Below are positions 12,197 through 64,000 of a DNA stretch of 64,000 nucleotides, in pieces. The translations under genes and the position numbers were made by a program. The stretch is from contig CAZMID010000004.1 of assembly GCA_964566255.1 (NCBI GenBank), forward strand, positions 3,441 to 67,440, given 5' to 3'. This DNA comes from an uncultured Planctomycetia bacterium. GTDB lineage: Bacteria > Omnitrophota > Gorgyraeia > Gorgyraeales > Gorgyraeaceae. The first letter of the stretch is position 1; each line of letters starts with the position of its first letter. A model generated the notes under the pieces. The model saw only the letters and a program-made list of their open reading frames with translations, ran no database searches and was not told the DNA's origin.

Positions 12197-13267
12197 CTAA
12201 CGTATAAATAACTTTAAAAACTCATTTGCTGTGTTTGACCATGTAAAATGCTTAGCTTTATCAATGCCTTTTCTAATCAACTCTTCTTTAAGATCTTTAT
12301 CATTAATAATTTTTAACATTGCTTCAGCGATTTCCTTATAATTATCAGGATTTATTAATAAACTTCCATCTTTTGCTATCTCACCACAGGATGATGTCTT
12401 AGATGTAACTACGGGTATACCTGATGCAAATGCCTCTATTATTGGAAAACCAAACCCTTCATAAAATGATGGATATACAAATATAGCCGCATCCCTATAT
12501 AGATTCCTCAATTCCTCATCTTTTACGTAACCTTTGAAAATTATATCTTCCTTAAATTCAGACTCATCGTACGCCTTAAAAATATTCTCAAACATCCATC
12601 CTTTCATACCTACAATATATAATTTATGTTTTATATCAGAATTTTTTCTTAACCATGTAAATGCCTTTATTAGCCCATCTACGTTTTTTCTTGGTTCCAA
12701 AGTCCCTACAAAAAGTATAAAATCTTCTTTTTCTCTACGATCTTCTTTTACTTGTGTAGAAATTTTAAGTATTGGATTTACACCTGGATAAATAACAGAA
12801 ACCTTTGAATCATCTACTTCATAAAACTTTATTAAATCAGACTTTGTATTATAAGAATCCGCTACTATTATGTCTACCTCGGATAAAGATTTCCTGAGTT
12901 TTTGATCAACTTCGCTTATCGTGTGCTCATTATGGCCATATGGATATGCCTTTATAATTACATCATGAACTGTAAGTATAAATTTTGAACCTTTGGGTTT
13001 TGCTAAATCATAGGATGAAGTATGAAATATATCTATATCTGACAAAATTCTATTAGGACCCTTTTTAAAGTAATCTACAGCATGATGGAAATTCCTGGCC
13101 GGAAGTTTAGGCAGTTTTCTTTTAAAATCTAAAATCTTTTTTCTACTATATAAAAAATAGTTATTTTTTAAATCAACTTCTGCAAGGGCATTAATTAGAT
13201 TAGAAGTATATTTTCCTATACCTGTAGATTTTTTAAGGGTGGGACGGATATCTATTGCAATTCTCAT
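12197..13267 (-). CDS. Glycosyltransferase, family GT4
   Basis: 356 aa; C-terminal GT4 signature FVYPSFYEGFGFPIIEAFASGIPVVTS (E-x7-E motif). Confidence 0.8.
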   Translation of the reverse strand: MRIAIDIRPTLKKSTGIGKYTSNLINALAEVDLKNNYFLYSRKKILDFKRKLPKLPARNFHHAVDYFKKGPNRILSDIDIFHTSSYDLAKPKGSKFILTVHDVIIKAYPYGHNEHTISEVDQKLRKSLSEVDIIVADSYNTKSDLIKFYEVDDSKVSVIYPGVNPILKISTQVKEDRREKEDFILFVGTLEPRKNVDGLIKAFTWLRKNSDIKHKLYIVGMKGWMFENIFKAYDESEFKEDIIFKGYVKDEELRNLYRDAAIFVYPSFYEGFGFPIIEAFASGIPVVTSKTSSCGEIAKDGSLLINPDNYKEIAEAMLKIINDKDLKEELIRKGIDKAKHFTWSNTANEFLKLFIR

Positions 13268-13268
13268 A

Positions 13269-15059
13269 TTATTTTGGAAGGATATCTTGCATCTTTTTAC
13301 AGCTTATATCCAAGCTTCTACAAGAATCCACTACTTCTCCAAAAATATCCTTTGAAAGGCGCGGTATTGCTATTATTAATTCATTTACCCTGCTATGCCT
13401 TGCAATCTTTTCAATATCTTTCCTTGGGCCAAGAACAGGAACACCATGTATGTTTCTACCTATCTTTTCTTCGTCATCATCTAAAAAGCCAACAGGCTTA
13501 TAATGTAAAAGTTTATTATTCTTTATTTCCCTTAAAGTAAATTCTCCTGCATCCCCTGCACCATAAATCAAAACCTTCTTGCCATCTAAACTAACCTGGT
13601 CAAATATCTCTTTATAAACCCTTTCGAGAATCCTTGATCCTGAAATTAAAACAAAAAGTAAAAGCCAATCTATAACAAAAACTGCTCTTGAGAATCCCTG
13701 AAAACGCCACATAAAAAGAATGGTTGCTGCAGATACAATCGAAGCAAGAGAAATCCCTTTAAATACGTTTATAAGATCAGGTATAGACACATATCTCCAG
13801 ACACCTCTATAAAGTCCACATTTAAAAAATACAATATACTTTATAATTACTATTAAAGGCAGAGATTTTACAATAATATCCTGGTTTTTAATAGATAACA
13901 TGCCTTCAAACCTTAAAAGATATGCTGATATGTATGCCACGCATATCAACACAAAATCTCCGCCTACTTCTAAAATCCTTCTCTTATGCATCAGCACATT
14001 GTTCAATACAACATTACCATTTTTATTTTTTAAATTAGTTACTTCTCCAACTGGATATACTTTTACCTTGCCCAAAAAGGCTGCAAAATATATCAGGATT
14101 ACAGAAGCAAGCAAAACGAGCATGACTGTCACAACTGGATTTGCATACATAGACAAAACACTCACAGCTCCAAAAAATATGCTTATGATATACAGAACTA
14201 TTACGGTATTCCTTTCAGAAAGCCCTAATACTACCATTCTATGTGAAATATGGTCCTTACCTCCCTGAAAAACCTTGCGAGAACTGATGCCTCTTATAAA
14301 CGTAACAAATGCTGTATCAAATATAGGAACCGCTAACACTAAAACAGGGATAGCAAGCATCATAATTAAATGGGTAGATTCTTTCCAGCTACCCTGTAAT
14401 GCCATTGTAGCAAGCATAAAACCTATAAACATACTACCACAATCACCCATAAAGATCTGGGCAGGAGAAAAGTTATATCTCAAAAATCCCAATAGACTTC
14501 CAGCAAGAATTAACATCGGTAATGCAACCAAGAAATTCCCATTCAAAAATGCCCATAAAAATAGAACAACACTCGCAATAACCGCAACTCCACTTGAAAG
14601 GCCATCCATATTATCAAGTAAATTAAAGGCATTGACAACTGCTATCATCCATAGAATTGTAAGGGGCATTCTTATTATCTGGTAAGGTATTACTTTTATA
14701 CTCACGCCAAAGCTAACTAATAAAGATGCAACGATTATCTGCCCTATAAGCTTTGTAGAAGGCTTTATATGCATAACGTCGTCAAAAAGTCCCAGGGCAA
14801 AAATAATACTCCCACATAATATAATACTAGCAGTTTCAAAAGTAGGCTTTACAAAAATAATATATGGAATAATAAATGAAAAGAAAATACCTATGCCACC
14901 AAAAAGCGCTGTTTCCTTCTTGTGCCATCTGTCTTCTTTTGGTTTAGCAAGGTAACCTTTAACTATAGCTATCCTTCTAATAACAGGTGCTAAAAGTATG
15001 GACATAGCAAATGAGGTAAGAAATGGAATAAGGTAAGTTTTAAACATAAAGGAGGTCAA
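13269..15059 (-). CDS. Fusion: polyprenyl-phosphate HexNAc-1-phosphate transferase (WecA/MraY family) N-terminal domain + C-terminal membrane/CoA-binding-like domain of the CapD/PglF/WbaP N-terminal type
   Basis: N-half: GLFDDVMH (DDxxD), NAFNLLDNMDGL, FMGDCGSMF, HISHR; multiple TM helices. C-half: further TM helices then VLIYGAGDAGEFTLREI...PVGFLDDDEEKIGRNIHGVPVLG, matching the Rossmann-like domain that precedes the catalytic domain in WbaP/PglF-type proteins; 596 aa. Confidence 0.7.
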   Translation of the reverse strand: MTSFMFKTYLIPFLTSFAMSILLAPVIRRIAIVKGYLAKPKEDRWHKKETALFGGIGIFFSFIIPYIIFVKPTFETASIILCGSIIFALGLFDDVMHIKPSTKLIGQIIVASLLVSFGVSIKVIPYQIIRMPLTILWMIAVVNAFNLLDNMDGLSSGVAVIASVVLFLWAFLNGNFLVALPMLILAGSLLGFLRYNFSPAQIFMGDCGSMFIGFMLATMALQGSWKESTHLIMMLAIPVLVLAVPIFDTAFVTFIRGISSRKVFQGGKDHISHRMVVLGLSERNTVIVLYIISIFFGAVSVLSMYANPVVTVMLVLLASVILIYFAAFLGKVKVYPVGEVTNLKNKNGNVVLNNVLMHKRRILEVGGDFVLICVAYISAYLLRFEGMLSIKNQDIIVKSLPLIVIIKYIVFFKCGLYRGVWRYVSIPDLINVFKGISLASIVSAATILFMWRFQGFSRAVFVIDWLLLFVLISGSRILERVYKEIFDQVSLDGKKVLIYGAGDAGEFTLREIKNNKLLHYKPVGFLDDDEEKIGRNIHGVPVLGPRKDIEKIARHSRVNELIIAIPRLSKDIFGEVVDSCRSLDISCKKMQDILPK

Positions 15060-15064
15060 GAAGG

Positions 15065-16027
15065 CTAATTTTCTCTACAATACTCTACTACACTTTTAAT
15101 AATCCCCTCGAGATTTATAGTTGGACTAAAGCCTATTGCTTTTTTAATCTTTGCAGTATCAGGCATCCTGCGCTGCATATCTTCAAATCCCTCTTCGTAG
15201 GCTTTATCATATGGTATATAAACTACTTCTGATTTACTCTTTGTAATTCCTATTACTCTTTTAGCAAGGTCTTCTATAGTTATTTCCTCCTGACTGCCTA
15301 TATTGAACACCTTACCTACAGCATCTTTATTATTCATTAACTTCATAAGCGCACTTACTGCGTCTTTAACATGCAAAAAACACCTTGATTGCTTTCCATT
15401 GCCATAAACGGTTATCTCCTTATCTTTGAGTGCCTGATTTACAAACCTGGGGACAACCATACCATAATTGCCAGTCTGCCTCGGGCCCACTGTATTAAAA
15501 AGCCTTACTATTACAGCAGGTACTTTTTTCTGTCTCCAATAAATATAAGCAAGCATCTCATCTAAGGCCTTTGCAGTAGAATATCCCCACCTTGCTTTCA
15601 ATGGAGAGCCTAAAATTCTATCATCCTCTTCTTTTAAAGGACCATTACTGTTTTTACCATATATCTCTGAAGTAGAAGTTATAAGGACTTTCTTATGATA
15701 GCGATACACCATGTCCAAAACAACTTCGCTTCCCTTTATATTTGTAACCAGCGATTCCAGAGGTTTTTTTACTATTAAATCCACACCTACTGCAGCAGCT
15801 AAATGATATACTACATCACATTTTTCAACAAGTTTATCCACCAACATCTCATTTAAAATAGTACCTTCAACAAAACGAAATCTCTTATTCTCTTCCAGAT
15901 GAGCAATATTTTCAAATCTGCCAGTTGATAGATTATCTAGTACGACAACATCATCTCCACCTGTAATCAGTTCGTCTGCCAAATGAGACCCAATAAACCC
16001 TGCGCCACCTGTAATCAATATCTTCAC
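15065..16027 (-). CDS. NAD-dependent sugar-nucleotide epimerase/dehydratase (SDR; UDP-glucuronate decarboxylase/4-epimerase-like)
   Basis: ILITGGAGFIGSHL Rossmann motif, YSTAKA (YxxxK catalytic), 320 aa. Confidence 0.8.
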   Translation of the reverse strand: MKILITGGAGFIGSHLADELITGGDDVVVLDNLSTGRFENIAHLEENKRFRFVEGTILNEMLVDKLVEKCDVVYHLAAAVGVDLIVKKPLESLVTNIKGSEVVLDMVYRYHKKVLITSTSEIYGKNSNGPLKEEDDRILGSPLKARWGYSTAKALDEMLAYIYWRQKKVPAVIVRLFNTVGPRQTGNYGMVVPRFVNQALKDKEITVYGNGKQSRCFLHVKDAVSALMKLMNNKDAVGKVFNIGSQEEITIEDLAKRVIGITKSKSEVVYIPYDKAYEEGFEDMQRRMPDTAKIKKAIGFSPTINLEGIIKSVVEYCREN

Positions 16028-17205
16028 AACACTCTTCTCCTATTTGATAGAAGGGTATTATACAACCTATCTATATCATTTATCAACCTTTCTTTTAAAA
16101 ATCTATTTTTCGCTACCTCTCTGGCGTATTCTCCAAATCTCTCTCTTTTATTACGATCATCTATCAAATCTTGAAGTTTCTTCGAAAAATTCTCATCATC
16201 TTTAGGACCTATAAGGTATCCACTCTTATTGTCCTCTACTATATCTGAAACCCCACCTACTTTAGCTGCCACAACTGGCCTTGCAGCAGCCATAGCCTCA
16301 ATTATAGATACCGGGGTCCCTTCATTCAAAGATGTCAATGCTACAATATCCAGCTCTTTATAGATCCCATGCAAATCCTTTATCCAACCCTTAAACTCTA
16401 CCATATCCTCTATATTTAACTCTTTAGCGTAATCTTTCAACTCTTGACTCAACTTTCCATCTCCAATAATCAGAAATTTCACCTTTAGCCCTTTATCCTT
16501 CACGCCTTTAGCTACCCTGAATAACATCCTGTGATTCTTCACTGGCACCAATCTTCCTATAATCCCGATATTTATGCAATCCGAGTTCTCTCTCGCATGC
16601 AATTTTAATAATTCACTGAGGTTAAATCCTAATTCTATTACAGAAAATTTTTTTTCTTGTGCTATTTTGAATTTTTCAACGAGCTCTTTTTTTAGAGATT
16701 CACCTACTGTAACAACCCTATCTGTAAAAAGCGCCAATATTCTTTCTATCCATATGAAAAAAAAGGTCTTAATCGTTCCAAAATAACTATGCAATACATG
16801 ACCATGAAAGGTATGCACTAAAATAATTCTCTTCTCTTTCCTCTTTGTAGTAAGGGCAAAGAAAAAATTATACAGAACTCCAGCTAGTCTCCCTAATGTC
16901 CCTGCCTTCGCAGTATGTGTATGTATAATATCTGGTTTTTCCCTACAAATAATCCTGTATATATTCCAAAAGGTCCTCCAGTCATTCCTGATAGATAATT
17001 CCCTACCTAATTCCTTCACAATGATTGGCTCAATTCCTTTTTCCCTTATCAGATACATCATATCGCCTTCAGACTCACTGACTTCACCACATAAAAGAAT
17101 TGTCTCAAATCCCTTATTATGCAATCCTTCTGTTAAAAGTACTGCATTCCTCGCCGGGCCTCCTATATTAAGTCTCGCGATTATCCTTAAAACTTTAGCA
17201 TTCAT
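16024..17205 (-). CDS. Glycosyltransferase, family GT4
   Basis: 393 aa; N-terminal GT4 donor-domain start LRIIARLNIGGPARN; C-terminal TSLNEGTPVSIIEAMAAARPVVAAKVGG. Confidence 0.8.
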   Translation of the reverse strand: MNAKVLRIIARLNIGGPARNAVLLTEGLHNKGFETILLCGEVSESEGDMMYLIREKGIEPIIVKELGRELSIRNDWRTFWNIYRIICREKPDIIHTHTAKAGTLGRLAGVLYNFFFALTTKRKEKRIILVHTFHGHVLHSYFGTIKTFFFIWIERILALFTDRVVTVGESLKKELVEKFKIAQEKKFSVIELGFNLSELLKLHARENSDCINIGIIGRLVPVKNHRMLFRVAKGVKDKGLKVKFLIIGDGKLSQELKDYAKELNIEDMVEFKGWIKDLHGIYKELDIVALTSLNEGTPVSIIEAMAAARPVVAAKVGGVSDIVEDNKSGYLIGPKDDENFSKKLQDLIDDRNKRERFGEYAREVAKNRFLKERLINDIDRLYNTLLSNRRRVL

Positions 17206-17215: not shown

Positions 17216-18340
17216 TCAAAAAAAATCCTTTATGTAACTTACTATTCGATCCTGGTCTTTTAAAGTCAAGTCGGGATAAAGAGGAAGGGTTAAGAGTTTC
17301 TTCCAGGCAGCTTCTGTTGCAGGACAATCTGCCTTGAATTTTTTATACATTCTGTAATGATAATTAGGTATATAGTGCACTCCCGTAGATACACCTTTCT
17401 TCTGAAGGTAGATATTTAATCTATCCCTTTCATCACTTTTTATTACATAATTATGATGAGAACTTCTTACATATCTTTTTACCACAGGAACTTCTATTGA
17501 AGGCATGTTTTTCAATAGGTTATTATACTGAAAACTTAACCTCCGTCTTCTATTATTCATTTTGTCAAGCTTCCTTAACTGCACAATTCCTATCGCAGCT
17601 GGGATATCATTCATATGATATTTAAAACCTACTTCCTCGACATCATAATACCAAGAGTATTTTTTAATAAAACTTTTTTCTTCTTTCTCTCTATCCCATG
17701 TAGCTTTTGTAATCCCAAGCCATCTCAATTTTTTAAGCTTCTCGTAAACCTTTCTATCATTTGTCGTTACCATACCACCCTCACCTGTAGCAAGATTTTT
17801 TACTGCATGAAAAGAAAAACAAGCGATGTCTCCTAAAATACCGACTTTCTTATCTTTATACTCGGCTCCACAAGCATGCGCTGCATCCTCTATTATCTTT
17901 ATATTTTTAGCCTTTGCAAACCTTCTTATAGGATCCATATCACACGGGTGTCCACCATAATGCATTGTAATTATTGCCTTTGTTTTCCTGGTAATTTTCT
18001 TCTCAATTTCTTCTAAGCTGATATTCAAGGTATCTGGCTCTATGTCACAAAATAGAGGTCTAGCCTTATTGTACAAAATAGCATGATTTGTGGAAATAAA
18101 TGTCATAGGGGTTGTCAAGACCTCTCCTCCCTCTACACCCATAACTTTTAATGCAAGATGAAGTGCAGCAGTGCAGGAATTTAAAGCCACCGCATATTTT
18201 GCACCTATATATTTTGCAAAGGAATTTTCAAATTCTTGGGTCTTTGGGCCGAGTCCTACCCATCCTGAATTCATAACTCTTTTAACTGCTTCAAATTCTT
18301 CTTTTCCGTATGAAGGTTTAAATACTGGTATCATAATCAA
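17216..18340 (-). CDS. DegT/DnrJ/EryC1/StrS-family PLP-dependent sugar aminotransferase
   Basis: 374 aa; EFENSFAKYIGAKYAVALNSCTAALHLAL; conserved FSFHAVKNL with the lysine; Pse/Arn/WecE-like. Confidence 0.85.
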   Translation of the reverse strand: MIMIPVFKPSYGKEEFEAVKRVMNSGWVGLGPKTQEFENSFAKYIGAKYAVALNSCTAALHLALKVMGVEGGEVLTTPMTFISTNHAILYNKARPLFCDIEPDTLNISLEEIEKKITRKTKAIITMHYGGHPCDMDPIRRFAKAKNIKIIEDAAHACGAEYKDKKVGILGDIACFSFHAVKNLATGEGGMVTTNDRKVYEKLKKLRWLGITKATWDREKEEKSFIKKYSWYYDVEEVGFKYHMNDIPAAIGIVQLRKLDKMNNRRRRLSFQYNNLLKNMPSIEVPVVKRYVRSSHHNYVIKSDERDRLNIYLQKKGVSTGVHYIPNYHYRMYKKFKADCPATEAAWKKLLTLPLYPDLTLKDQDRIVSYIKDFF

Positions 18341-20181
18341 ATATATCCTTTAAGCCAATAATAGACTATACCCAGATATTCATGCATAATAGCTCTTATC
18401 TGTTTCAATTTTACCCCTTCTCCCCTATAATAAAACTGGCTCTTCTCTACTGGAGTATAAAAAACCTTTATGCCTTCAGCACATTTATTAAATACTAGCG
18501 ATACCCGCCGCATATTATAAGGTGAGGAAATCAATAATATTGAATCCCATTTATGCCTATCTAATATATCTTTTGAAAACAGAACATTTTCATAGCTGCT
18601 ATTTGCTTTTTGTTCTAAAATAATATCCCTATTAGAAACTCCCATAGAAATAGCGAATAGCCGCATATTTTCTGCATCATTGTAATTGTAAGTATAGCCA
18701 GATGAAAATATTATCTTATCTGCATAGCCTTCGTTATATAGCTCTGTCGCGTATCTTGCTCTCTCCATAGTACTCTTACCAGGTGAACCTGTTTCACCCA
18801 CACCGCCTCCAAATACAACAATAGCATCACTTTTTTGCGGTGGTTCAGAAATCTTTAAAGGACTGGCCAAAAACCAAAGAAAGGGTGCTTTAAATAACAA
18901 AAAATACGACAAGAAACAAACTATGGCTAAACGTAGTGTTCTTTTTCTTATAACTCTATAAAAATTAACTAGATTTTCTTTCCACCTTGCTTCCATATCT
19001 GTTTTTTTTCTTTCCATCTCTTTTTGTATTAAATTATCCATCTTTTCAATGCGATTTTCCCAGTTATTTTGTCTAGCTACCTCGACTCTCTTTTGTCTTA
19101 AAATCTGATTATCCTCAACAACAGCCTTATCGATATATTTGCTGAATTCTTTTTTATCGCTTGCCACATATACTATATCTCCATATTCATTATTAAATGA
19201 AATTACCTCTGGTAAGGATGTCGATATAACAGCCTTTCCTAATGCAAGATACTCATTTAATTTAGTAGGATAGACATTCTTTGTGTAATCAGCAATAACA
19301 TATGGAATAAGGCATACATCAAAATTCTTTATAAAGAGAGGTAGATCTTTATGGTCTTTATTTCCCAAAAAATAAACATTTTTATAAGGCGATATCGAAG
19401 CTATATTCGTCTGTATAGGCCCTACGAATACAAAAGAATAATCCGAGTGCCTCTCTATCATTTCCTTTATTAAACCCTGGTCTATCCATTTATGCACACC
19501 TCCTACGTAACCGATTATAGGGGGTTTAATATTTTTAAAGTCTTTAGGAGTAATATTTTCTTCTAATCTTGCTTTTTCAAATTCACTAAAATTAACGGCA
19601 AACGGAAAATTATAAACCTTATCATTATATTTAGAACAATGATTAAATAATTCTTTTGAAGTCACGAAAACCAAATCTACATTCTTTAATAATTTTCTTT
19701 CCGATCTTTCTATCTTTTTAGCTGATATCGAACTAACAGAAAAGCTATCGATACAATAATAAATAAAGACCTTTTTTATAACATTATTGGCTATATCCAA
19801 ACTCAAAGGTGTTGGTAAAAATGTCCATATAATCGGGTCGTTAAAATCCATCACCTTCGTCCATTTCGTCAGAATAGATAAAATCAAATACCGATTAAAC
19901 CATCTTGCTATTCGTAAATAAGGAAACGGCAAAACCAAAGGAGAAAATACATATAGATTTTCGGTCTCTTTTCTTATGCCCTTTACGCCTCTAAACCAAT
20001 TCTTTATTCTTTTCCTGATGCGGGAGATGTCTTTTATTCCAGGTGAACGCACCCCAGTGTTTTCTATAAAAAGAACTCTATTGCCATTCTTGGCAAAAGT
20101 CGCCATTACCTCTTGGTGCCCCTGCCAGATAAAATCCCAGTCAATACTGGATATGCAAATTATATTTTCTCCCTTTATCAT
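18337..20181 (-). CDS. Fusion protein: N-terminal GT4-like glycosyltransferase + coiled-coil + TM + C-terminal DUF218 (YdcF/ElyC/SanA-like) domain
   Basis: 614 aa; GT-B C-domain signature NEYLALGKAVISTSLPE; after a TM segment SDAIVVFGGGVGETGS...YNEGYADKIIFSSG...ANSSYENV (DUF218 signature). Confidence 0.65.
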   Translation of the reverse strand: MIKGENIICISSIDWDFIWQGHQEVMATFAKNGNRVLFIENTGVRSPGIKDISRIRKRIKNWFRGVKGIRKETENLYVFSPLVLPFPYLRIARWFNRYLILSILTKWTKVMDFNDPIIWTFLPTPLSLDIANNVIKKVFIYYCIDSFSVSSISAKKIERSERKLLKNVDLVFVTSKELFNHCSKYNDKVYNFPFAVNFSEFEKARLEENITPKDFKNIKPPIIGYVGGVHKWIDQGLIKEMIERHSDYSFVFVGPIQTNIASISPYKNVYFLGNKDHKDLPLFIKNFDVCLIPYVIADYTKNVYPTKLNEYLALGKAVISTSLPEVISFNNEYGDIVYVASDKKEFSKYIDKAVVEDNQILRQKRVEVARQNNWENRIEKMDNLIQKEMERKKTDMEARWKENLVNFYRVIRKRTLRLAIVCFLSYFLLFKAPFLWFLASPLKISEPPQKSDAIVVFGGGVGETGSPGKSTMERARYATELYNEGYADKIIFSSGYTYNYNDAENMRLFAISMGVSNRDIILEQKANSSYENVLFSKDILDRHKWDSILLISSPYNMRRVSLVFNKCAEGIKVFYTPVEKSQFYYRGEGVKLKQIRAIMHEYLGIVYYWLKGYI

Positions 20182-56823: not shown

Positions 56824-56824
56824 T

Positions 56825-57646: not shown

Positions 57647-58376
57647 GACTAATGATATGTTTATTTTTAAATGCAACTAAGTATAAAAAAGACAAGATGA
57701 AAAGCCATAAAGAAATAGACTTATAAAATGTCTTCTCTGGAATCAATGGCAGATCTTCCTTCTCAGAAAAGACAACTCGCCTATCTTCATCCATAATATC
57801 AAAGGATATATAATTCCTGCCTGGCTTTTCAAAACTGAAATTGGCAAGTACCCTTACCTCATTCAGCCCTAATTGTAAAAATTTGGTAATTTCTATCACT
57901 GGGAAGTCTTTTTTATATTCGCGATTAGTGCCAAATGTTTTGTTATAATCAGGTACCCAGTTAAACTCTACAAAATTGTCATTGATGTAAAGCCTGTAAA
58001 GCTCTTGCGTCTTGATACGCATAAAATACTTATCCCTTTTATCTATCTCTATCTGTCCGGACAATTCATAATTCCTTCCGTGCATAAAATACTGGTCAAC
58101 CTTATTCCCATCAAACACTATATTCTCTGGATAATGCCGCCTCCTAATAGACCTTGCGTATGCATGGTAAGAATCGTATAAATCAGCTATCCTATTATTG
58201 TCTCCTTCCTTATTTAGCAAAATATTTTTGAATTCGCTCCAAAAAGGATAGCGATCGACCTTTAAAAAAATTATCCCAGTAAAAACTGACCATGTTACGG
58301 TCAATAGTATCAAAGTAATAATAACTATGATGTTCTTGAGCGGTAGGCCTTTGATAATACGCGTATCTTCTAACAT
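57630..58376 (-). CDS. Hypothetical bitopic membrane protein
   Basis: 248 aa; N-terminal TM helix, ~180-aa extracytoplasmic domain, C-terminal TM helix. No motif recognised. Confidence 0.4.
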   Translation of the reverse strand: MLEDTRIIKGLPLKNIIVIITLILLTVTWSVFTGIIFLKVDRYPFWSEFKNILLNKEGDNNRIADLYDSYHAYARSIRRRHYPENIVFDGNKVDQYFMHGRNYELSGQIEIDKRDKYFMRIKTQELYRLYINDNFVEFNWVPDYNKTFGTNREYKKDFPVIEITKFLQLGLNEVRVLANFSFEKPGRNYISFDIMDEDRRVVFSEKEDLPLIPEKTFYKSISLWLFILSFLYLVAFKNKHIISHEKVI

Positions 58377-58389: not shown

Positions 58390-59616
58390 TTATCTAGTAA
58401 CTACTAAAAAATTGCTCTTCTTCACTAAAGACACTAGCCAGATCAATATAAGTGCCGGAAGAAGTGCTACGCCTCCTATAAAATGAAAAGACTTAACAAA
58501 ACATTCTGGATAAAGCCAATAATTATAAAAACTCTTCATGGATGTCAATGGAACAAACTGATGATAATTTGCATATTGATTTGTTTCGAAAATCAAGTAT
58601 TGAGAGAAATTCAACTGCCATATAAACCCTAAAACAGAATATAGACAAAAAAGTTTATCTATAAAGATAACACCTATCGGAATAACCCAATATAAATACT
58701 GCGATGCCAAAACTGGAGATAAAATATAAACAACGAGTATAGTTATCAAAAGTAATGCCAAGATATTTGTTTTTCTGCCAACATACCCAATAATAACTGC
58801 AGAGATAATTATAATAAATTTTGAAAATTTAGCATAAACTCTTATTAAATCTCCGATGGTAGCTAACTCAAAGAAAGGAATCCCCCATCCAAGATGTCCA
58901 CCACCGCTATAACCAAGCATTGACCTAATGCTTCTAATAATCAAAAGTTGGTCTAACAACAGCAAAAAAGGCAAGATACACCCCAATATATAGATCAAAA
59001 GAAAACCTCTTTTATCTTTTGCATGAGGCCTCTTGAAAAAGAAAGCCGGGAGACAGAAAATAACATACGGCTTAAAATATGTAGCTAACAACAATGTCAA
59101 TGGAATAGCTACATTTTTATGTCTTTCTGCCCAGGAATGCGATAATTCAATATAGACTGCTAGCAGGATAAAAAAGAATACCTGCTGATCAAATTGCCCA
59201 TGCAGTGCAGTAAGCTGAAAACTCATGGGATTAAAAATATAAGCAGCGCATACAAATAATGAAAATCTGTCAGATTTTCCCATTTGTCTTGTGATTTTAA
59301 ACAATAAGAACATAATTCCTATGTCTGCGAAAATATCAGCTAATCTCATCCAAAACGAGTAAAAGAGTCCAAAATGATCTACAAAGACTCCAAAGATATA
59401 CCCAAATACATAAATTGAAGGAAAATATGGTATCCCTATAGGTATTTGACCATCAATCAAATATTCATTATAAGATTCGAGGTTCGAAGGATCGCCATGC
59501 CCTTTAAAAAGATAAGCAAATGCCAATCTTATTAACACGCCTAAAAATAATAAAATGGCGTATTTGATATAATCTCTACGGCAAGCCTTATCTTGTAATG
59601 TCGCTTTAAAAAACAT
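58390..59616 (-). CDS. Polytopic membrane protein, possible GT-C-fold polyprenyl-phosphate-sugar-dependent glycosyltransferase (DUF2029/PMT_2-like)
   Basis: 408 aa, about 10-11 TM helices, first loop rich in aromatic/acidic residues. Immediately downstream of a DPM1-like GT2. Confidence 0.4.
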   Translation of the reverse strand: MFFKATLQDKACRRDYIKYAILLFLGVLIRLAFAYLFKGHGDPSNLESYNEYLIDGQIPIGIPYFPSIYVFGYIFGVFVDHFGLFYSFWMRLADIFADIGIMFLLFKITRQMGKSDRFSLFVCAAYIFNPMSFQLTALHGQFDQQVFFFILLAVYIELSHSWAERHKNVAIPLTLLLATYFKPYVIFCLPAFFFKRPHAKDKRGFLLIYILGCILPFLLLLDQLLIIRSIRSMLGYSGGGHLGWGIPFFELATIGDLIRVYAKFSKFIIIISAVIIGYVGRKTNILALLLITILVVYILSPVLASQYLYWVIPIGVIFIDKLFCLYSVLGFIWQLNFSQYLIFETNQYANYHQFVPLTSMKSFYNYWLYPECFVKSFHFIGGVALLPALILIWLVSLVKKSNFLVVTR

Positions 59617-59619: not shown

Positions 59620-60318
59620 TCATCTTCCTTTCAACCTGAAGTAAAACATCTCTTTTAATCCAGAAAAAGCAGCGGGGATATGCCTAATTGACCTTCTGCC
59701 TTTTACGCGCTTCAAATAAGCTATAGGGATTTCTTTTATAGATAATTGCATACTTTTACTTTTTATAGCAACTTTTGTTGTTGTCATAATAGGGTGGATA
59801 TCAAGTATGCCTAAAACAGGTAAGAGCTTTTCCCTCCTGTATAATTTAAAGGCGCAATTAGGATCTCTTAAGAATATGCGAAAAAGAATCAAGGTTAATA
59901 AAATATTCCCTATCGTGAAAAAAATACGCTCCCTGCTATCCCTATGGGTTATATTTCGAACTCCCCATATAGCATCGTAATCATCGCGATACTTCCATAA
60001 CTTCCAGATATCCTTAGGATAATGTGAATAATCGGCATCTGCCCACATAACATAATCCTTAGAGGCATACTTAAGTCCTTTAAAAACTGTTTCGCCATAT
60101 CTTTTATTTTTCTCATTATTTAATACAACAACTTGGGAGAACTGTCCTTTTAACTTTCTTAGTATCTGTGATGTAGAATCTGTTGAAGCGTCATTAACTA
60201 TAATTATCTCAAAATCGTCTAAATGCCTACTAAGCTCAGCATGCCAATCACACGTAAAACGCTGAATATTATCTTCTTCGTTATAACACGGGACCACAAG
60301 ACTTAATGACGGTTTCAT
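59620..60318 (-). CDS. GT2 polyprenyl-phosphate sugar synthase (DPM1/ArnC-like), soluble form
   Basis: 232 aa; LSLVVPCYNEEDNI, IIVNDASTDST, DADYSHYP (DAD motif). Confidence 0.8.
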   Translation of the reverse strand: MKPSLSLVVPCYNEEDNIQRFTCDWHAELSRHLDDFEIIIVNDASTDSTSQILRKLKGQFSQVVVLNNEKNKRYGETVFKGLKYASKDYVMWADADYSHYPKDIWKLWKYRDDYDAIWGVRNITHRDSRERIFFTIGNILLTLILFRIFLRDPNCAFKLYRREKLLPVLGILDIHPIMTTTKVAIKSKSMQLSIKEIPIAYLKRVKGRRSIRHIPAAFSGLKEMFYFRLKGR

Positions 60319-60339: not shown

Positions 60340-61716
60340 TTAAATACCGGCAACTTCTGCTTCTCCTGCCAAATCAACTAAATAATCATACCAGCCAAAA
60401 ACTTCCTTTGCATTACGATGGGCGATCCGAGGACGCTTGGAACCACCACATTCCTCTTTTCGCTGAAAATTACCTATTGTCTGAAATTCTGAAAAGTCTT
60501 TCAGGCGCTCAGGTACCCAATGTATAGGGTCTGCCAAGGCCTCTTGGTACGAAACTGTCCCCGGCAAAGGCTGAAAGATATGAAAACTAAATTTCACTTT
60601 CCCATTTGTTTCACTAATGATCCTCTTTACATATTCGCCTGTCAGCTTAACATCACTTGACGTCTCATAAGGTAGGCAACCTGTTATCATCTGGGCCCTG
60701 ACCTTCAAATTATACTTTGCAGTTAAAAGTAAGGCCTTGTAATTTTGCTCAGATGTATTCTGCTTATTCAAACCCGCTAATACCTGATCAGAAAAATGTT
60801 CCACACCAAAAACTATCCCCACGCATCCAGAATCTACCATCATCTGCAACTTCTTCTCATCTATATGATCTGTTCTTCCCAGGCAAAGCCAATCCAACCC
60901 AGACCGAGACATCTGTTTACATAATTCATCAAGCATATCTTTCTTGGTCAACATGTCATCATCATCAAAATATACCCTATTTATTCCCCATCGCTTTTTA
61001 TGCTGTATAAGTTCATCTACGGCATTTTTTATATTGCGATGGCGAATCCATTTATGACCGGCTTGACCACTCATGCAAAACTTACATCTGCTATAACATC
61101 CACGACTGACCATTACATTAAATTGTAAATCATCTTTATGTTTGTTCAGATAGCTGTATACACCGGGCTTTAGATAACGGTAGATGCCATAATCTTCAAA
61201 CCGTAATGGATAATATTTTTCAATATCTCTTTCCAGTGGCCGTTTACCTGTATCAATAATACTTCCATCTTTACTTAAAAAGACAAGACCGGGAATATTC
61301 GAGATATCTTTCTGACTGGTCATTAATTCCAATATGCATTCTTCGCCCTCACCATTAACTGCAATATCAGCATTACGACTACGTAAACAATCCTCGGGAA
61401 GCGCTATAGCATGAGCGCCTCCGATAACTATCCGCGCCGATGGATTTCTAGATTTTAAAAATGTCGCTAATTCCTGGGCATAAAATATTTGACAGGTTAC
61501 GGCGGAGATGCCATAGAGATCGGCATCTGGAATTACATCCCATGATTCCTGCTTGGTTCCAGCTAAATCTACCAACGTGGAATCAACACCGTTCTTTCGC
61601 AAATAAGAATGGATAGACAAAGGGCCCCTTGCCATAATCTCAGTGTCGGATTTTAAATGGGATGTCGGAAGATTTATTATTACTATCCTACTCCGATCCA
61701 CACCTTTTAAGATCAT
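60340..61716 (-). CDS. Cobalamin(B12)-binding-domain radical SAM enzyme (class B), copy E
   Basis: 458 aa; IVIINLP...GPLSIHSYLRKNGVDSTLVD, SRGCYSRCKFCMSGQ. Confidence 0.75.
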   Translation of the reverse strand: MILKGVDRSRIVIINLPTSHLKSDTEIMARGPLSIHSYLRKNGVDSTLVDLAGTKQESWDVIPDADLYGISAVTCQIFYAQELATFLKSRNPSARIVIGGAHAIALPEDCLRSRNADIAVNGEGEECILELMTSQKDISNIPGLVFLSKDGSIIDTGKRPLERDIEKYYPLRFEDYGIYRYLKPGVYSYLNKHKDDLQFNVMVSRGCYSRCKFCMSGQAGHKWIRHRNIKNAVDELIQHKKRWGINRVYFDDDDMLTKKDMLDELCKQMSRSGLDWLCLGRTDHIDEKKLQMMVDSGCVGIVFGVEHFSDQVLAGLNKQNTSEQNYKALLLTAKYNLKVRAQMITGCLPYETSSDVKLTGEYVKRIISETNGKVKFSFHIFQPLPGTVSYQEALADPIHWVPERLKDFSEFQTIGNFQRKEECGGSKRPRIAHRNAKEVFGWYDYLVDLAGEAEVAGI

Positions 61717-61745
61717 TTGCCTACTTCCTCCTTAAATCCTTAACA

Positions 61746-63137
61746 TCAGGTATAATTCCCTATAAACCTTCTTACTATGTTCCAAAAATTCGAAAAGGAA
61801 CCTAAATTTAAAAGTATCTTTGATAATATTAAAGGACGTAAATGAAATAACAGTATGGCTTTTTTTAACAGAATATCTACCTCTTTTTTGGAAAGATGTG
61901 GGGAGAAGCTTTTCACTACTTTATAATAAGACATATCACCGAAGTCTAAATCATCAAGCTGCCTGTCTTTCTTTAAATCAAAAAAGATCTGGCTTCCAGG
62001 GAATGGCGAAAAACTGGCAAATCCTCCACGTTCTATAGGTAGTCTTTTGGAAAATTCTATCGTATCTAAAATATCCTTACGCGTTTCAGTAGGATAGCCA
62101 ATAATAAACTGGCCTGTTATCCTCATTTTATATTTAGCCAAAAGATTAACTTTTTCCTCTATTTGACTAATATTCAAGTCCTTGTTCATATCATTTAAAA
62201 TTCTCTGAGAACCAGATTCAATCCCAACAGCAACCGCATAACACCCAGCCTCCTTCATAGCCTTAACAACTTCATCATCAATCGAATTTAATTGTATCCC
62301 GTTATTACAATTCCAGAGTATATTTAAACTACTCACTTTATCACAAAATTCTAAAACAGCGCTCTTTTTAAAAGTAAAGTTGTCATCTTGAATTATAATC
62401 TCCTTTACACCAAACCGCTTAACTAAATACTTTATCTCAGCAATAACATTATCTATGTTTCGATACCGAAATCCATTACCATAAACTGACTTTACAGTAC
62501 AAAAATTACATCTCATGGGGCATCCCCGGCTTATAGCTATAGGGACATTTGGAAATCTCTTAGCAAAAACACCTTGTGGCGCATGAGGATATAATGTTGG
62601 CTTAAGTAATTCCCAATCTGGCCAGGGCAATTTGTCAATGTCTCTTATGGATTCTTTTGCATTCTTGACAATTTCTCCATTTCTATTCCGCCAAACCAAA
62701 CCTGGGATACCATGCCAAGAGGCTCCACCTTCAGCTATCATATTTACCAGGGACAAAAAGGCCTGTTCACCTTCGCCTACAATAATAAAATCCAAATCAG
62801 GACCTAAATAATCCATCGTCTCATCCGGTAATGCAGAAGGATGAGGTCCACCTATGACTGTAATTATCTGCGGATTGTATGCTTTAATACAGCGGAGGTA
62901 TCCTTTTACTGTAGCTAGATCAACAGAATAGACTTGTATACCTACAACGCCTGGTTTTACATGACTCAAAAAATTATAAAAAGAATCTATTGTTGAAATT
63001 TTATCTCGGATTGCCTCACATAGAAAAACATCATGCCCACCTTTAAGTTTAAGCATCGAAGCTAAATAGCCCAAGCCCAAAGGAGGCGTAAATGAGTAAG
63101 AAAATTTATTAAATGGACGCGTCAGAAGTACTCTCAC
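61746..63137 (-). CDS. Cobalamin(B12)-binding-domain radical SAM enzyme (class B), copy F
   Basis: 463 aa; VLLTRPFNKF...PPLGLGYLASMLKLKGGHDVFLCE, SRGCPMRCNFCTVKSV. Confidence 0.75.
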   Translation of the reverse strand: MRVLLTRPFNKFSYSFTPPLGLGYLASMLKLKGGHDVFLCEAIRDKISTIDSFYNFLSHVKPGVVGIQVYSVDLATVKGYLRCIKAYNPQIITVIGGPHPSALPDETMDYLGPDLDFIIVGEGEQAFLSLVNMIAEGGASWHGIPGLVWRNRNGEIVKNAKESIRDIDKLPWPDWELLKPTLYPHAPQGVFAKRFPNVPIAISRGCPMRCNFCTVKSVYGNGFRYRNIDNVIAEIKYLVKRFGVKEIIIQDDNFTFKKSAVLEFCDKVSSLNILWNCNNGIQLNSIDDEVVKAMKEAGCYAVAVGIESGSQRILNDMNKDLNISQIEEKVNLLAKYKMRITGQFIIGYPTETRKDILDTIEFSKRLPIERGGFASFSPFPGSQIFFDLKKDRQLDDLDFGDMSYYKVVKSFSPHLSKKEVDILLKKAILLFHLRPLILSKILLNLGSFSNFWNIVRRFIGNYT

Positions 63138-64000
63138 CCTTGCTCCTTTTCTTTTGAATGCCTTCTTTTTATTTCTCTATCATAAGACTTGAGGGCCGCT
63201 TGGATTGTAGCATCCATATCATAATATCTATAGTCTCCTAACCTTCCTCCAAAAATAACATTTTTGAGTCTTTCCTTTTCATCTGAATATTTATTAAAAA
63301 TCTCTTCGTTTCTGAGAGTATTAACTGGATAATATGGGTTACCTCTTGTATCCAATTTAGAGTATTCCCTTACAATTAAAGTCTTCTCTTTTGAATAATT
63401 TCGTTCAACATGTAGATGTTTCGGCTCATGAATACGTGTATAAGGAATAGATAACTCTGTATAATTCATAACAGATACTCCTTGATAATCTTCCAGTTTT
63501 AATATCTCTTTTTCAAAATCTAAAGTCCGCCATTCAAGTTTGCCAAATTTATAATCAAAAAATCTATCAATTGGGCCACTATATATAATAAGGCAATTTG
63601 GAGGGATATTATCTTTTATATCAAAAAAATCAATATTGAGACGTAAATCTATATTTTTATGATCCAGCATCCGTTTAAATATTTGACTGTATCCATCAAA
63701 AGGTATTCCTTGCCATCTATCAAAAAAATAGTTTTCATTGTAATTTCTTCTAACAGGCAATCTATCAATAATAGATGTTGGGAGTTCCCTGGGATCTCTC
63801 TGCCATTGTTTTTCTGTGTATCCTTTTATGAAGGCCTTATATAGGGGGCGTCCAACCAGCGATATTGCTTTTTCTTCTAAGTTTTTCGGCTCTGTAATCT
63901 TTCCCTTATTTATCTCAGCCCGTAAAAAATCATATACTTCAAATGGCCTTAGGTTAACATTATAAAAAGAATTGATTGTCTCCAAATTGATAGGCATCTG
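63134..64000 (-). CDS. glf: UDP-galactopyranose mutase, C-terminal ~288 aa (gene continues past window end)
   Basis: Translation aligns by eye along its length with E. coli Glf: NLEEKAISLVGRPLYKAFIKGYTEKQW, PVRRNYNENYFFDRWQGIP, YSGPIDRFFDYKFGKLEWRTLDFE, IPYTRIHEPKH, NPYYPVN, VIFGGRLGDYRYYDM. Frame open through position 64000. Confidence 0.85.
   Translation of the reverse strand, partial: QMPINLETINSFYNVNLRPFEVYDFLRAEINKGKITEPKNLEEKAISLVGRPLYKAFIKGYTEKQWQRDPRELPTSIIDRLPVRRNYNENYFFDRWQGIPFDGYSQIFKRMLDHKNIDLRLNIDFFDIKDNIPPNCLIIYSGPIDRFFDYKFGKLEWRTLDFEKEILKLEDYQGVSVMNYTELSIPYTRIHEPKHLHVERNYSKEKTLIVREYSKLDTRGNPYYPVNTLRNEEIFNKYSDEKERLKNVIFGGRLGDYRYYDMDATIQAALKSYDREIKRRHSKEKEQG

Follow-up and report, generated by a model that had tools for sequence, protein, structure and literature searches.

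What is made by some 45 genes that follow one another almost without spacing on one strand, beside the riboflavin (rib) operon of an uncultured Candidatus Omnitrophota bacterium, and do they form one transcription unit? The genes lie in a 64,000-nucleotide stretch of contig CAZMID010000004.1 (assembly GCA_964566255.1, positions 3,441 to 67,440; here called the window), where they run from glf at the window edge down to a family 4 glycosyltransferase (GT4) gene at 12197. A sequence-only reading of the window had described them as a super-operon for one elaborate surface glycan. The array is probably a composite island for surface-glycoconjugate biosynthesis, with a length of at least 64 kb and no fewer than 59 genes, and its expression would be polycistronic, probably in more than one unit.

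Omnitrophota have been inferred to lead a host-dependent or episymbiotic life, and their single contigs span ~0.8–3.8 Mbp (preprint 10.64898/2026.06.07.730766). Their surface is likely the main interface with hosts, and at ~0.8–3.8 Mbp, 64 kb or more for one glycoconjugate island is a large investment. As a type, the cluster is not new: large single-strand glycan loci, nonulosonate pathways and cassettes with phosphoenolpyruvate (PEP) mutase and a PntC-type nucleotidyltransferase (Ppm–PntC) are already known. What goes beyond them is the combination, the size and, above all, a tailoring repertoire rich in radical S-adenosylmethionine (SAM) enzymes, which includes a block conserved across phyla.

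Extent and layout of the array

Families were assigned by Pfam and NCBIfam profile searches against curated cut-offs, and every gene with a match has a glycan, phosphonate or head-group function. NeuB, NeuD/PglD, WbuX, PEP mutase and the asparagine synthase score above their cut-offs. Family matches identify an initiating transferase and a Wzx flippase (one of each in the window), at least seven Leloir glycosyltransferases, and aminosugar, nonulosonate and phosphonate enzymes, which bears out the envelope-glycan locus proposed by the sequence-only reading. The genes it had named (glf, the WecA-like initiator, wzx, the GT4 gene at 12197, neuB, the PEP mutase gene and the rib operon) are all present.

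According to the list of open reading frames (ORFs) of the window, 45 consecutive ORFs of at least 100 aa occupy 12197–63997, all on the minus strand. Their 44 junctions have a median of −4 nt and comprise 27 overlaps (mostly of the 4-nt ATGA type), 15 gaps of 0–29 nt and two larger gaps, of 85 nt (31973–32057) and 59 nt (54058–54116). The ORF list and this junction count confirm the chain of ~45 genes, the overlaps and the two gaps as described earlier. No plus-strand ORF chain competes with the minus-strand genes in the 64-kb window.

In order of transcription, the window part of the array falls into five modules. Module A consists of Glf, two B12-binding radical SAM enzymes (B12-rSAMs), a short family 2 glycosyltransferase (GT2), a 408-aa and a 248-aa protein, the nonulosonate genes, a TIM-barrel protein, a 620-aa protein and Wzx. 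Module B contains a B12-rSAM, the PEP mutase fusion, a split phosphonopyruvate decarboxylase (Ppd), another B12-rSAM, a 2-aminoethylphosphonate (AEP) aminotransferase-like protein (AEPT), a nucleotidyltransferase and a CDP-alcohol phosphatidyltransferase-family (CDP-OH) enzyme. Module C, the cross-phylum block, is formed by a 698-aa protein, the B12-rSAM called B12-rSAM_2, a GT2, a GDSL protein, a GT4 and AsnB. Past the 85-nt gap, module D holds a Gfo-type dehydrogenase, a hexapeptide acetyltransferase, a short-chain dehydrogenase/reductase (SDR), a DegT aminotransferase, a formyltransferase, a polyprenyl-phosphate GT2 (GT2_a), WbuX, a 516-aa membrane protein, a methyltransferase, a B12-rSAM, a SPASM enzyme, a TuaH-like–DUF218 fusion and a second DegT. 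Module E is the anchor next to rib: a GT4, an SDR, the WecA-family fusion and the final GT4.

The continuation that had been suspected beyond coordinate 64000 was found. Identity look-ups of window proteins retrieved metagenome contigs 99.98–100% identical to the window, and a JGI contig (L089/L092) with 100% identity extends 12,377 nt past coordinate 64000, adding 14 genes on the same strand as the array. In order of transcription, the extension encodes two small ORFs, a polysaccharide deacetylase, a methyltransferase, a GT2, a DUF2304 protein and a seventh B12-rSAM, followed by a GT4-like protein, an unknown 447-aa protein, DegT, GT1, a transglutaminase-like protein, a MarR-like protein, another DegT and the complete glf, whose full-length product in L089/L092 has 386 aa. 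The array totals at least 64,181 bp and at least 59 genes, and the contig stops short of its 5′ border. Identical sequence (100%) is present in the JGI samples 3300009374 and 3300009405 and in ENA ERZ23499057 and ERZ23499079, whereas scanning JGI metagenome contigs for exact matches to the 5′ end of L001 gave none. The gene cut by the window edge is:

63134–64000, minus strand: glf, UDP-galactopyranose mutase (PF03275, 1.4e-78)

Polarity and compactness are regional traits rather than properties of the glycan locus, since the housekeeping flank is equally polar and compact. All 57 ORFs of at least 100 aa in the whole window (1232–63997) and a tRNA gene are on the minus strand. The 12 housekeeping genes at 1232–12039 are packed as tightly as the glycan genes, apart from a 61-nt gap and a 372-nt gap that contains the tRNA gene, and long same-strand runs around rib are common in related Omnitrophota genomes. 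The strict polarity noted earlier is therefore real, but it is no hallmark of the locus. Within the 372-nt intergenic region, which separates rmuC from ligA, the tRNA-Pro(CGG) gene lies at 6157–6234 on the minus strand.

GC content (0.32–0.38) and a strongly negative GC skew are uniform over the locus and its flanks. The possibility that the island was acquired horizontally was considered and finds no compositional support; no integrase or IS element lies inside the locus. The plus-strand skew is −0.10 to −0.35 throughout 1–64000, with G in excess over C on the coding strand, and together with the one-strand gene arrangement this suggests a genome with an extreme gene-strand bias.

The retrieved contigs also show local differences. 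An apparent strain variation upstream, between L093 and L092, turned out to be scaffold Ns and a 7-nt gap. The last 87 nt of L089 (17536–17622), which are richer in GC, diverge from the window at 52082, inside the 620-aa transferase gene; either the contig end is chimeric or the breakpoint reflects a difference between strains. In L090, an ENA assembly of the same population, three single-nucleotide polymorphisms separate the contig from the window overall. Two of them, separated by 33 nt, fall in the 5′ part of wzx (L090 15517–15552, window 50550–50650), where wzx reads as ORFs of 89 and 403 aa; a premature stop, phase-like variation or a sequencing error could account for this.

Radical SAM enzymes and the phosphonate cassette

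Profile searches added to the sequence-only reading six B12-rSAMs in the window, a SPASM enzyme, two formyltransferases and the WbuX and AsnB amidotransferases. With the seventh B12-rSAM in the L092 extension, the radical SAM genes, listed here together with the 698-aa protein of module C, are the most distinctive part of the island:

20178–21275, minus strand: radical SAM/SPASM enzyme (family match)
21272–22774, minus strand: B12-rSAM 1 (family match, motif)
37151–38713, minus strand: B12-rSAM 2 (B12-rSAM_2; SD_1168, NF038361, 303 bits, below the 575-bit cut-off)
38729–40825, minus strand: 698-aa protein with a zinc ribbon, a class I methyltransferase domain and a weak APH/kinase-like C-terminus (family matches)
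43431–44939, minus strand: B12-rSAM 3, between Ppd and the aminotransferase (a B12-rSAM holds the same position in L083)
47618–49132, minus strand: B12-rSAM 4 (family match, motif)
60340–61716, minus strand: B12-rSAM 5 (family match, motif)
61746–63137, minus strand: B12-rSAM 6 (PF02310 and PF04055; CPMRCNFC motif; HpnJ 183 bits, cut-off 578)

The six window B12-rSAMs have an intact CxxxCxxC motif and a B12-binding domain, as does the seventh in L092. The mutual identity of the six is 22–32%, so they are not recent duplicates. The best NCBIfam matches of the B12-rSAMs include HpnJ, BchE, SD_1168, a lipid 'ladder' B12-rSAM and methylases of ribosomally synthesised and post-translationally modified peptides (RiPPs). 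Fom3, MoeK5, HpnJ, GenK and SD1168 form one similarity cluster of single-methylation enzymes, in which the substrate of SD1168 is unknown (PMC9204698).

The conserved block of module C gives the best view of how these enzymes may be employed. B12-rSAM_2 has more than 6000 homologs at E <1e-30, with orthologs 75% identical in the related locus L083 and 66% identical in L084. Its relatives sit in a glycan locus in five of the five contexts examined: L083, L084, L086 (in which the B12-rSAM_2 protein is labelled Omnitrophota by NCBI), a Clostridia metagenome-assembled genome (MAG) and a Chloroflexota MAG. Recurrent neighbours are DegT, RmlA, a 4,6-dehydratase, a 3,4-ketoisomerase, GT2, AsnB, a methyltransferase and GT4, and Wzx, a LIC12162 protein and NeuB also occur near the relatives in those loci. 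The methyltransferase/B12-rSAM/GT2 block recurs in Chloroflexota and Clostridia glycan loci. In the Chloroflexota locus (L088), a homolog of the 698-aa protein (48% identical) lies directly upstream of the B12-rSAM_2 homolog and no phosphonate genes are present, so B12-rSAM_2 belongs to a sugar-tailoring block and not to the phosphonate pathway. The 592-aa unknown protein at the same position in the Clostridia locus (L087) was compared with the 698-aa methyltransferase and shows no similarity to it. We also considered B12-rSAM_2 as a P-methyltransferase making a phosphinate and rejected this as the leading idea: its score is half of the cut-off, and its orthologs accompany GT2, DegT and sugar genes even at sites that lack neighbouring phosphonate genes.

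B12-rSAM genes occur at a density of about one per 7–11 kb, similar in all compared loci. Radical-SAM richness is thus a trait of a class of loci in uncultivated anaerobes and not of this locus alone. The seven divergent B12-rSAMs and the SPASM enzyme would most likely tailor nucleotide-sugar or CMP-phosphonate intermediates, by radical C-methylation or in a related way. For the B12-rSAMs, radical C-methylation or rearrangement of nucleotide sugars and CMP-phosphonates, which has no characterised precedent in surface glycans, is a tentative proposal, possible rather than probable. The best candidates may be the 698-aa protein/B12-rSAM_2/GT2 block and the two B12-rSAMs interleaved with the AEP genes. 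Our literature search found no description of B12-rSAMs in O-antigen, capsule or nonulosonate clusters, and nothing relevant on nonulosonate or phosphonate biology in Omnitrophota. If the proposal is true, the locus exemplifies a widespread, undescribed 'radical-tailored' glycan class of anaerobic uncultivated Omnitrophota, Chloroflexota and Clostridia. The seven uncharacterised B12-rSAMs, whose context is interpretable, are targets for enzymology and can be assayed as sugar or phosphonate C-methylases.

The phosphonate cassette is encoded by the following genes:

45991–47649, minus strand: PEP mutase fused to a LicC/PntC-type nucleotidyltransferase (PF12804; TIGR02320 337 bits, cut-off 320)
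44936–45978, minus strand: Ppd, split into alpha (45490–45978) and beta (44936–45493) subunits (TIGR03297, Pfam)
42349–43434, minus strand: AEPT-like aminotransferase (TIGR03301 301 bits, best match, below the 361-bit cut-off)
41645–42352, minus strand: second, stand-alone nucleotidyltransferase (NTP_transf_3; family match)
40822–41676, minus strand: CDP-OH membrane enzyme (PF01066, 44.7 bits)

The PEP mutase carries the EDKxxxxxNS motif, as EDKQFPKVNS at residue 109, and matches PDB entry 5unc at 1.7e-105; its C-terminal domain is LicC-like (1jyk). TIGR03297 is the best match of both Ppd subunits, which score 140.6 and 179.9 bits (sum 320) against a cut-off of 312.5 bits for the unsplit enzyme; the role of Ppd is to draw the mutase reaction forward against its unfavourable equilibrium. 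The LicC-like PF12804 domain fused to Ppm and the stand-alone copy are predicted to encode PntC-type nucleotidyl activation. One in three Ppm enzymes is fused to PF12804, and CMP-AEP is the product of PntC enzymes (PMC6697681). The combination of AEPT, two PntCs (one Ppm-fused) and CDP-OH is known as the 'Burkholderiales_CDP-OH' architecture, which has been assigned to group 1 phosphonolipids (PMC8942020). In the CDP-OH protein, the motif D(x)2DG(x)2AR(x)8G(x)3D(x)3D is kept as DWSDGHLAR...G...D with the fourth Asp replaced by Ala, and in the L083 ortholog the fourth Asp is shifted by one residue. The altered motif may point to a different acceptor or mechanism.

Taken as a pathway, the cassette would make a CMP-activated, AEP-type phosphonate and pass it to a lipid or to the lipid-linked glycan. 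Its position inside a glycan locus bears on how CMP-phosphonates reach lipids versus glycans. The locus L083 carries the same Ppd/B12-rSAM/AEPT/NTP-transferase/CDP-OH cassette. This 39.9-kb Logan contig (SRR22388187) encodes orthologs 32–74% identical to window proteins: besides the cassette, it shares B12-rSAM_2, GT2, GT4 and the GT1–DUF218 fusion, and it additionally has a recognisable PMT_2 (GT-C) protein and an EamA transporter, which makes it useful for module dissection.

Proposed glycan assembly and expression

Judged from the genes present, a WecA-family transferase would start a polyprenyl-diphosphate-linked oligosaccharide at the membrane's cytoplasmic face, and about ten Leloir glycosyltransferases would extend it with sugars made by the locus. 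Among these sugars, galactofuranose would come from Glf, a 2,3-diamino or N-acyl sugar from the Gfo-type dehydrogenase, DegT and the hexapeptide acetyltransferase, aminosugars with N-formyl and acetamidino groups from the two formyltransferases and WbuX, and an amidated uronic acid from AsnB. A CMP-nonulosonate produced with NeuB, the cytidylyltransferase and NeuD/PglD would probably be added by a GT-B protein of the LIC12162 superfamily, after which Wzx would flip the product across the membrane to its outer face. For a separate extracytoplasmic decoration, the PgfS/ArnC-type GT2 would load a formamido sugar onto polyprenyl phosphate. The genes concerned with initiation, transfer and membrane steps are:

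12197–13267, minus strand: GT4, last gene of the array (family match; ortholog in L012)
13269–15059, minus strand: WecA/MraY-family initiating polyprenyl-phosphate HexNAc-1-P transferase (PF00953 1.5e-35, WecA 117 bits, MraY structures)
15065–16027, minus strand: SDR sugar dehydratase/decarboxylase-like protein of the anchor block (81–85% identical in relatives)
16024–17205, minus strand: GT4 of the anchor block (GT4_b; 61–69% identical in L004, L005 and L012)
18337–20181, minus strand: TuaH-like GT-B glycosyltransferase fused to DUF218 (orthologs 51–52% identical in L083 and L084)
23628–25178, minus strand: 516-aa polytopic membrane protein, candidate Wzy-type polymerase or GT-C (weak EpsG similarity)
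26341–27270, minus strand: GT2_a, PgfS/ArnC/GtrB-type polyprenyl-phosphate GT2 with two C-terminal transmembrane (TM) helices (full-length PgfS 187 bits, ArnC 110 bits)
33956–35122, minus strand: GT4 (family match)
35119–36225, minus strand: SGNH/GDSL-like esterase or acyltransferase (weak LA_2486/LA_2490 matches)
36222–37154, minus strand: GT2, conserved partner of B12-rSAM_2 (family match)
49145–50650, minus strand: Wzx-type flippase with ~14 TM helices (PF01943, PF13440, PF01554)
50634–52496, minus strand: 620-aa soluble GT-B-fold transferase, candidate nonulosonate transferase (divergent LIC12162/BFO_1060 superfamily)
57630–58376, minus strand: unknown 248-aa protein with terminal TM segments (no family match)
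58390–59616, minus strand: 408-aa polytopic membrane protein with ~10 TM helices, possibly GT-C-like (no Pfam match)
59620–60318, minus strand: GT2 of 232 aa, catalytic domain only (PF00535; partial PgfS/ArnC matches)

Sugar and nonulosonate synthesis is represented by:

17216–18340, minus strand: DegT-family sugar aminotransferase (family match)
22774–23631, minus strand: class I SAM methyltransferase (family match)
25188–26348, minus strand: WbuX-family N-acetyl sugar amidotransferase, acetamidino-forming (TIGR03573 235 bits, cut-off 203)
27286–28218, minus strand: sugar N-formyltransferase, ArnA-N-like (family match)
28218–29513, minus strand: DegT-family sugar aminotransferase (family match)
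29471–30460, minus strand: SDR sugar epimerase/dehydratase (family match)
30462–30971, minus strand: hexapeptide-repeat N-acetyltransferase (family match)
30968–31972, minus strand: Gfo/Idh/MocA oxidoreductase, UDP-GlcNAc 3-dehydrogenase-like (WbpB-like; family match)
32058–33956, minus strand: AsnB-type glutamine amidotransferase, probably for uronic acid amidation (TIGR01536 490 bits; TIGR03108 633 bits)
52508–53392, minus strand: xylose-isomerase-like TIM-barrel protein (PF01261; PDB 3wqo)
53407–54057, minus strand: NeuD/PglD-family sugar N-acetyltransferase (TIGR03570 206 bits, cut-off 161)
54117–55064, minus strand: sugar N-formyltransferase, ArnA-N-like (family match)
55061–56125, minus strand: NeuB-type nonulosonate synthase (TIGR03569 421 bits, cut-off 400)
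56122–56847, minus strand: CMP-nonulosonate synthetase-like cytidylyltransferase (PF02348; PseF 171 bits, below the 206-bit cut-off)
56825–57676, minus strand: class I SAM methyltransferase (PF13489, 1e-20)

Fused to the C-terminus of the initiator is a module of TM helices and CoA_binding_3 that is usually the N-terminal part of WbaP/WcaJ or WbpM/PglF proteins, here without their catalytic domains. Relatives have the same fusion at 592–600 aa and 72–76% identity, and this conservation of length and sequence shows that it is not a pseudogene.

The 620-aa protein, whose gene adjoins the nonulosonate and wzx genes, is a candidate nonulosonate transferase. It has no Pfam match, no relative in a PDB sequence search and 80 relatives among 1.84 billion cluster representatives. 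Against the LIC12162 model (TIGR04331) it scores 19.5 bits (E 3e-4), short of the 225-bit cut-off, and 15 of its 24 aligned relatives match this model and five the BFO_1060 model. Direct BLASTP against a LIC12162 protein returned only a local QHGGxYG match, so that profiles were needed. In hhalign, the close family aligns with a distant one, which includes the PF27859 protein of the Omnitrophota locus L086, with a probability of 100% (E 7e-40, 497 columns). The AlphaFold2 (AF2) model has a GT-B fold (pLDDT 86, pTM 0.89) and matches UDP-GlcNAc 2-epimerases, MurG, TagF/TarL and the CMP-Kdo-binding domain of WaaA. The predicted fold resembles that of the 2-epimerases, but the sequence relatives are transferases. 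BFO_1060 is the homolog, in Tannerella forsythia FDC 92A2, of genetically proven Pse/Leg transferases (PMC5420450). It is on these grounds that we propose nonulosonate transfer as its function, and the protein represents a very divergent LIC12162/BFO_1060 branch with a confident GT-B model.

As to the two GT2/GT-C pairs claimed earlier, GT2_a is a full-length PgfS/ArnC-type enzyme; the possible GT-C partners, the 408-aa and 516-aa membrane proteins, show no significant similarity to the PMT_2 (GT-C) protein of L084. The 516-aa protein reaches 20.6 bits with EpsG (PF14897), below the 30.1-bit cut-off, and has no PDB relative by sequence search. The 408-aa protein, which has no Pfam match, has four non-identical homologs and one identical copy among 5.8 billion proteins; three of the homologs are ~630 aa long with a C-terminal extension, and one homolog has PF09594. 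Its AF2 model, made from a 5-sequence alignment, has a pLDDT of 52, so that the fold matches, which are weak (the GT-C enzyme AftD and a GPI-transamidase subunit that we take to be GT-C-like in fold), are only suggestive.

How the array is expressed can be judged from its borders and gaps, which contain these features:

11985–12185, minus strand: boundary outside the locus, with the rib promoter, a flavin mononucleotide (FMN) riboswitch and a terminator (sequence scans)
31973–32057, minus strand: intergenic gap of 85 nt, candidate internal promoter (TGTATAAT extended −10 element)

At the downstream border, a sigma-70-type rib promoter (TTGACA-17-TGTTATAAT, 12185–12157, 12/12 match plus the TG of an extended −10) starts 11 nt past the stop codon of the last glycan gene. 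It is followed by the FMN riboswitch (12143–12024, 107 bits), a terminator (12006–11985) and a Shine–Dalgarno sequence with an ATG at ~11961. With its own promoter, riboswitch and terminator, the rib operon is an independent riboswitch-controlled unit. The listed start of the ribBA ORF, 12039, overlaps the riboswitch and is an artefact; the true start is at ~11961. As the scan found no terminator between the last glycan gene and the rib promoter, transcripts that read through would stop only at that of the riboswitch. Within the rib operon (ribBA-ribH-nusB-PHP-ribD-ribE) lies a PHP-domain gene (9052–9876), a position kept in many Omnitrophota relatives; its product could be the missing 5-amino-6-ribitylamino-uracil phosphate phosphatase.

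Inside the locus, consensus promoter-like and terminator-like sites are not commoner than in shuffled sequence, which is compatible with long polycistronic units but proves nothing. The TGTATAAT element in the 85-nt gap lies 27 nt upstream of the next start codon, and the consensus scan did not flag it. The sole large gap of the extension (151 nt) precedes the MarR/TrmB-like gene (L092 10373–10927), ~2.1 kb past coordinate 64000, and holds a promoter-like site, TTGACA-17-(TG)TACCAT, which together with a palindrome occupies L092 10271–10336. The palindrome, a perfect 22+1+22 repeat of 45 bp (L092 10292–10336), overlaps the −10 element; as RNA it would fold with −30 kcal/mol (z-score −8.6), and the window contains no second copy. 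This arrangement is a candidate for the classic operator layout of an autoregulated repressor. The stretch between this promoter and 12197 measures ~54 kb and contains 47 genes, and a single ~54-kb transcript from it is possible; at least 12 glycan genes and at least 10 kb lie upstream of it. The expression model would thus comprise one MarR-controlled promoter ~2 kb past 64000, a possible internal promoter at 31973–32057 and a separate rib operon, and a MarR-type repressor acting on a perfect palindromic operator may control the ~54-kb array. At the 5′ end of the MarR-like gene, some 50–110 nt downstream of the palindrome, the contigs L001/L002 (ENA) start and L093/L094 end, all within ~65 nt.

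Several observations count against parts of this picture. All seven B12-rSAMs fall below NCBIfam cut-offs, the highest score being that of B12-rSAM_2 on SD_1168, and so do the AEPT-like aminotransferase and the CMP-nonulosonate synthetase. Lipids and tetrapyrroles are also among the substrates of B12-rSAM families, and gene context by itself does not settle which substrate is used. The CDP-alcohol transferase lacks the fourth Asp of its motif. No Epimerase_2 or PseG match was found in the window and L092, and without a recognisable hydrolysing 2-epimerase of the NeuC/LegG/PseG type the nonulosonate pathway as seen is incomplete. The Wzy assignment depends on a sub-threshold EpsG match, and Wzz/Wzc, Wza, WaaL or an oligosaccharyltransferase are absent from the 76 kb and 59 genes of the window and L092; such export and ligase machinery could sit elsewhere in the genome. 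The promoter and terminator calls derive from consensus scans that gave no enrichment over shuffled sequence.

Against this background, a single transcript of at least 50 kb (the 'super-operon') for one O-antigen or capsule polymer appears improbable. The short spacing of the 44 junctions, the lack of terminator-like enrichment, the missing terminator ahead of the rib promoter, and the single Wzx and initiating transferase of the window speak for it. Unrelated housekeeping genes and the relatives are, however, just as compact and polar; the extended array contains a strong promoter/operator candidate, the 85-nt gap has an extended −10 element, and the array continues upstream of the MarR-proximal promoter. 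Co-orientation and short spacing thus stand, while the term super-operon is weakened by regional polarity and by these two candidate promoters. The claim of one glycan suffers likewise, as the modules have independent evolutionary distributions, the CDP-OH cassette is of the phosphonolipid type (PMC8942020) and the GT2 for undecaprenyl-phosphate-linked sugar implies a second branch. A large, non-polymerised oligosaccharide for surface, S-layer or giant proteins, as in the general O-glycosylation of T. forsythia, would dispense with O-antigen or capsule altogether. At least ten glycosyltransferases for one unit, a Wzx with no Wzz, Wza or WaaL in 76 kb, the BFO_1060/LIC12162-type transferase beside nonulosonate genes and the abundant giant surface proteins encoded by Omnitrophota (preprint 10.64898/2026.06.07.730766) favour this product. 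It is rather unlikely: no oligosaccharyltransferase was identified, an EpsG-like candidate polymerase is present, and the acceptor machinery could sit elsewhere in the genome. GT2_a also fits protein glycosylation: its best match is PgfS, whose NCBIfam name says only Streptococcus glycosyltransferase and which we take to be part of the Pgf protein-glycosylation machinery of S. mutans.

Whether the phosphonate belongs to the glycan at all is a closer call. That the cassette is a passenger in the island and makes a membrane phosphonolipid, with AEP as the head group of diacylglycerol or a comparable lipid, is quite conceivable and falls only somewhat short of an even chance: its set of Ppm–PntC, AEPT, second nucleotidyltransferase and CDP-OH is the group 1 phosphonolipid architecture, and no LicD-type transferase is present. 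However, the cassette sits between wzx and glycosyltransferase genes with 4-nt overlaps, it accompanies glycan genes in L083 too, the altered CDP-OH motif leaves room for a different acceptor chemistry, and even for the Burkholderia CDP-OH clusters no phosphonolipid has been characterised so far (PMC8942020). It is very improbable, by comparison, that the B12-rSAMs act on lipids, cofactors or peptides and are merely co-located with glycan genes. Such roles are those of several best NCBIfam matches (HpnJ, BchE, the lipid 'ladder' enzyme and RiPP methylases), all far below cut-off, but the seven genes are interleaved with sugar genes through overlapping stop and start codons, B12-rSAM_2 relatives lie within glycan loci in all five contexts from three phyla, and the region contains no genes for a peptide precursor, hopanoids or tetrapyrroles. 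The composite glycoconjugate island remains the reading that we prefer.

Relatives and known systems

The closest relatives of RibBA (74–81% identity) come from Candidatus Omnitrophota MAGs and single-cell genomes, some of which are mislabelled as Planctomycetia; the gene order ribBA-ribH-nusB-PHP-ribD-ribE-rmuC-ligA, an unusual one, is common to them. For two locus proteins, most homologs likewise carry the label Omnitrophota. Comparison with related genomes, as the sequence-only reading had envisaged, revealed a conserved anchor and variable upstream genes. In the three closest relatives (L004, L005 and L012) the GT4_b/SDR/WecA-fusion block adjoins ribBA and is 61–85% identical; the upstream genes are not the same, and there are insertions of additional genes. 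More distant Omnitrophota have unrelated genes upstream of ribBA. O-antigen and capsule loci typically combine a conserved anchor and a variable body in this way, and the pattern also agrees with the population-variable polysaccharide cassettes reported in Omnitrophota (preprint 10.64898/2026.06.07.730766).

The Leptospira rfb locus, to which the array had been likened in layout though not in enzymology, is likewise a very long, packed, single-strand glycan locus with nonulosonate genes. The enzymology does differ in the phosphonate cassette and the seven B12-rSAMs of the Omnitrophota locus, but not throughout: a LIC12162-superfamily transferase lies beside the flippase here, and the best, weak matches of the GDSL protein are LA_2486/LA_2490. 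The likeness comes from family matches, and the LIC12162 link is remote (E 3e-4 for the protein itself). The general protein O-glycosylation and nonulosonate locus of T. forsythia (transferases Tanf_01245/TFUB4_00887/BFO_1060) shares Wzx, CMP-nonulosonate synthesis, a methyltransferase and a BFO_1060-related GT-B protein beside the nonulosonate genes. The window protein differs in length (620 versus ~445 aa), and only its relatives match the BFO_1060 model; the Omnitrophota locus also has a WecA-type initiator and a phosphonate module.

The phosphonate cassette has the EDKxxxxxNS-bearing Ppm–PF12804 fusion, Ppd, AEPT-like protein, second nucleotidyltransferase and CDP-OH enzyme of the Ppm–PntC (Rice 2019) and Burkholderiales_CDP-OH (Li 2022) clusters. 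It differs from them in the split Ppd, the two interleaved B12-rSAMs, the absent fourth Asp and the embedding in a glycan locus. In the fosfomycin pathway (Fom1/Fom3), in which a B12-rSAM C-methylates a CMP-phosphonate, there is a similar logic: a fusion of Ppm with a cytidylyltransferase-type domain adjoins B12-rSAM genes here as well, and Fom3 clusters with HpnJ/SD1168 (PMC9204698), families that are among the best matches of the window enzymes. Here the nucleotidyltransferase domain lies at the C-terminus and belongs to PF12804 instead of PF01467, an aminotransferase takes the place of the FomC reductase, and there is no epoxidase; no window enzyme reaches any family cut-off, and the relation to Fom3 is through family matches, not through the Fom3 sequence.

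The sugar genes recall, by their family matches, the wbp locus of P. aeruginosa and E. coli WbuX (Gfo 3-dehydrogenase, DegT, hexapeptide acetyltransferase, AsnB, WbuX and a WecA/WbpL initiator) and the Arn pathway (ArnA/B/C/T; ArnA-N-like formyltransferases and an ArnC-like GT2). All but WbuX and the asparagine synthase fall below equivalog cut-offs, and no ArnT (PMT_2) or ArnD is recognisable in the window. Closest in organism are the hypervariable cassettes of Omnitrophota (preprint 10.64898/2026.06.07.730766), from the same phylum; the conserved anchor beside a divergent upstream part that relatives of this locus show would fit them. Radical SAM and phosphonate content goes unmentioned there, and the example given spans 25 kb, compared with at least 64 kb in the island described here.

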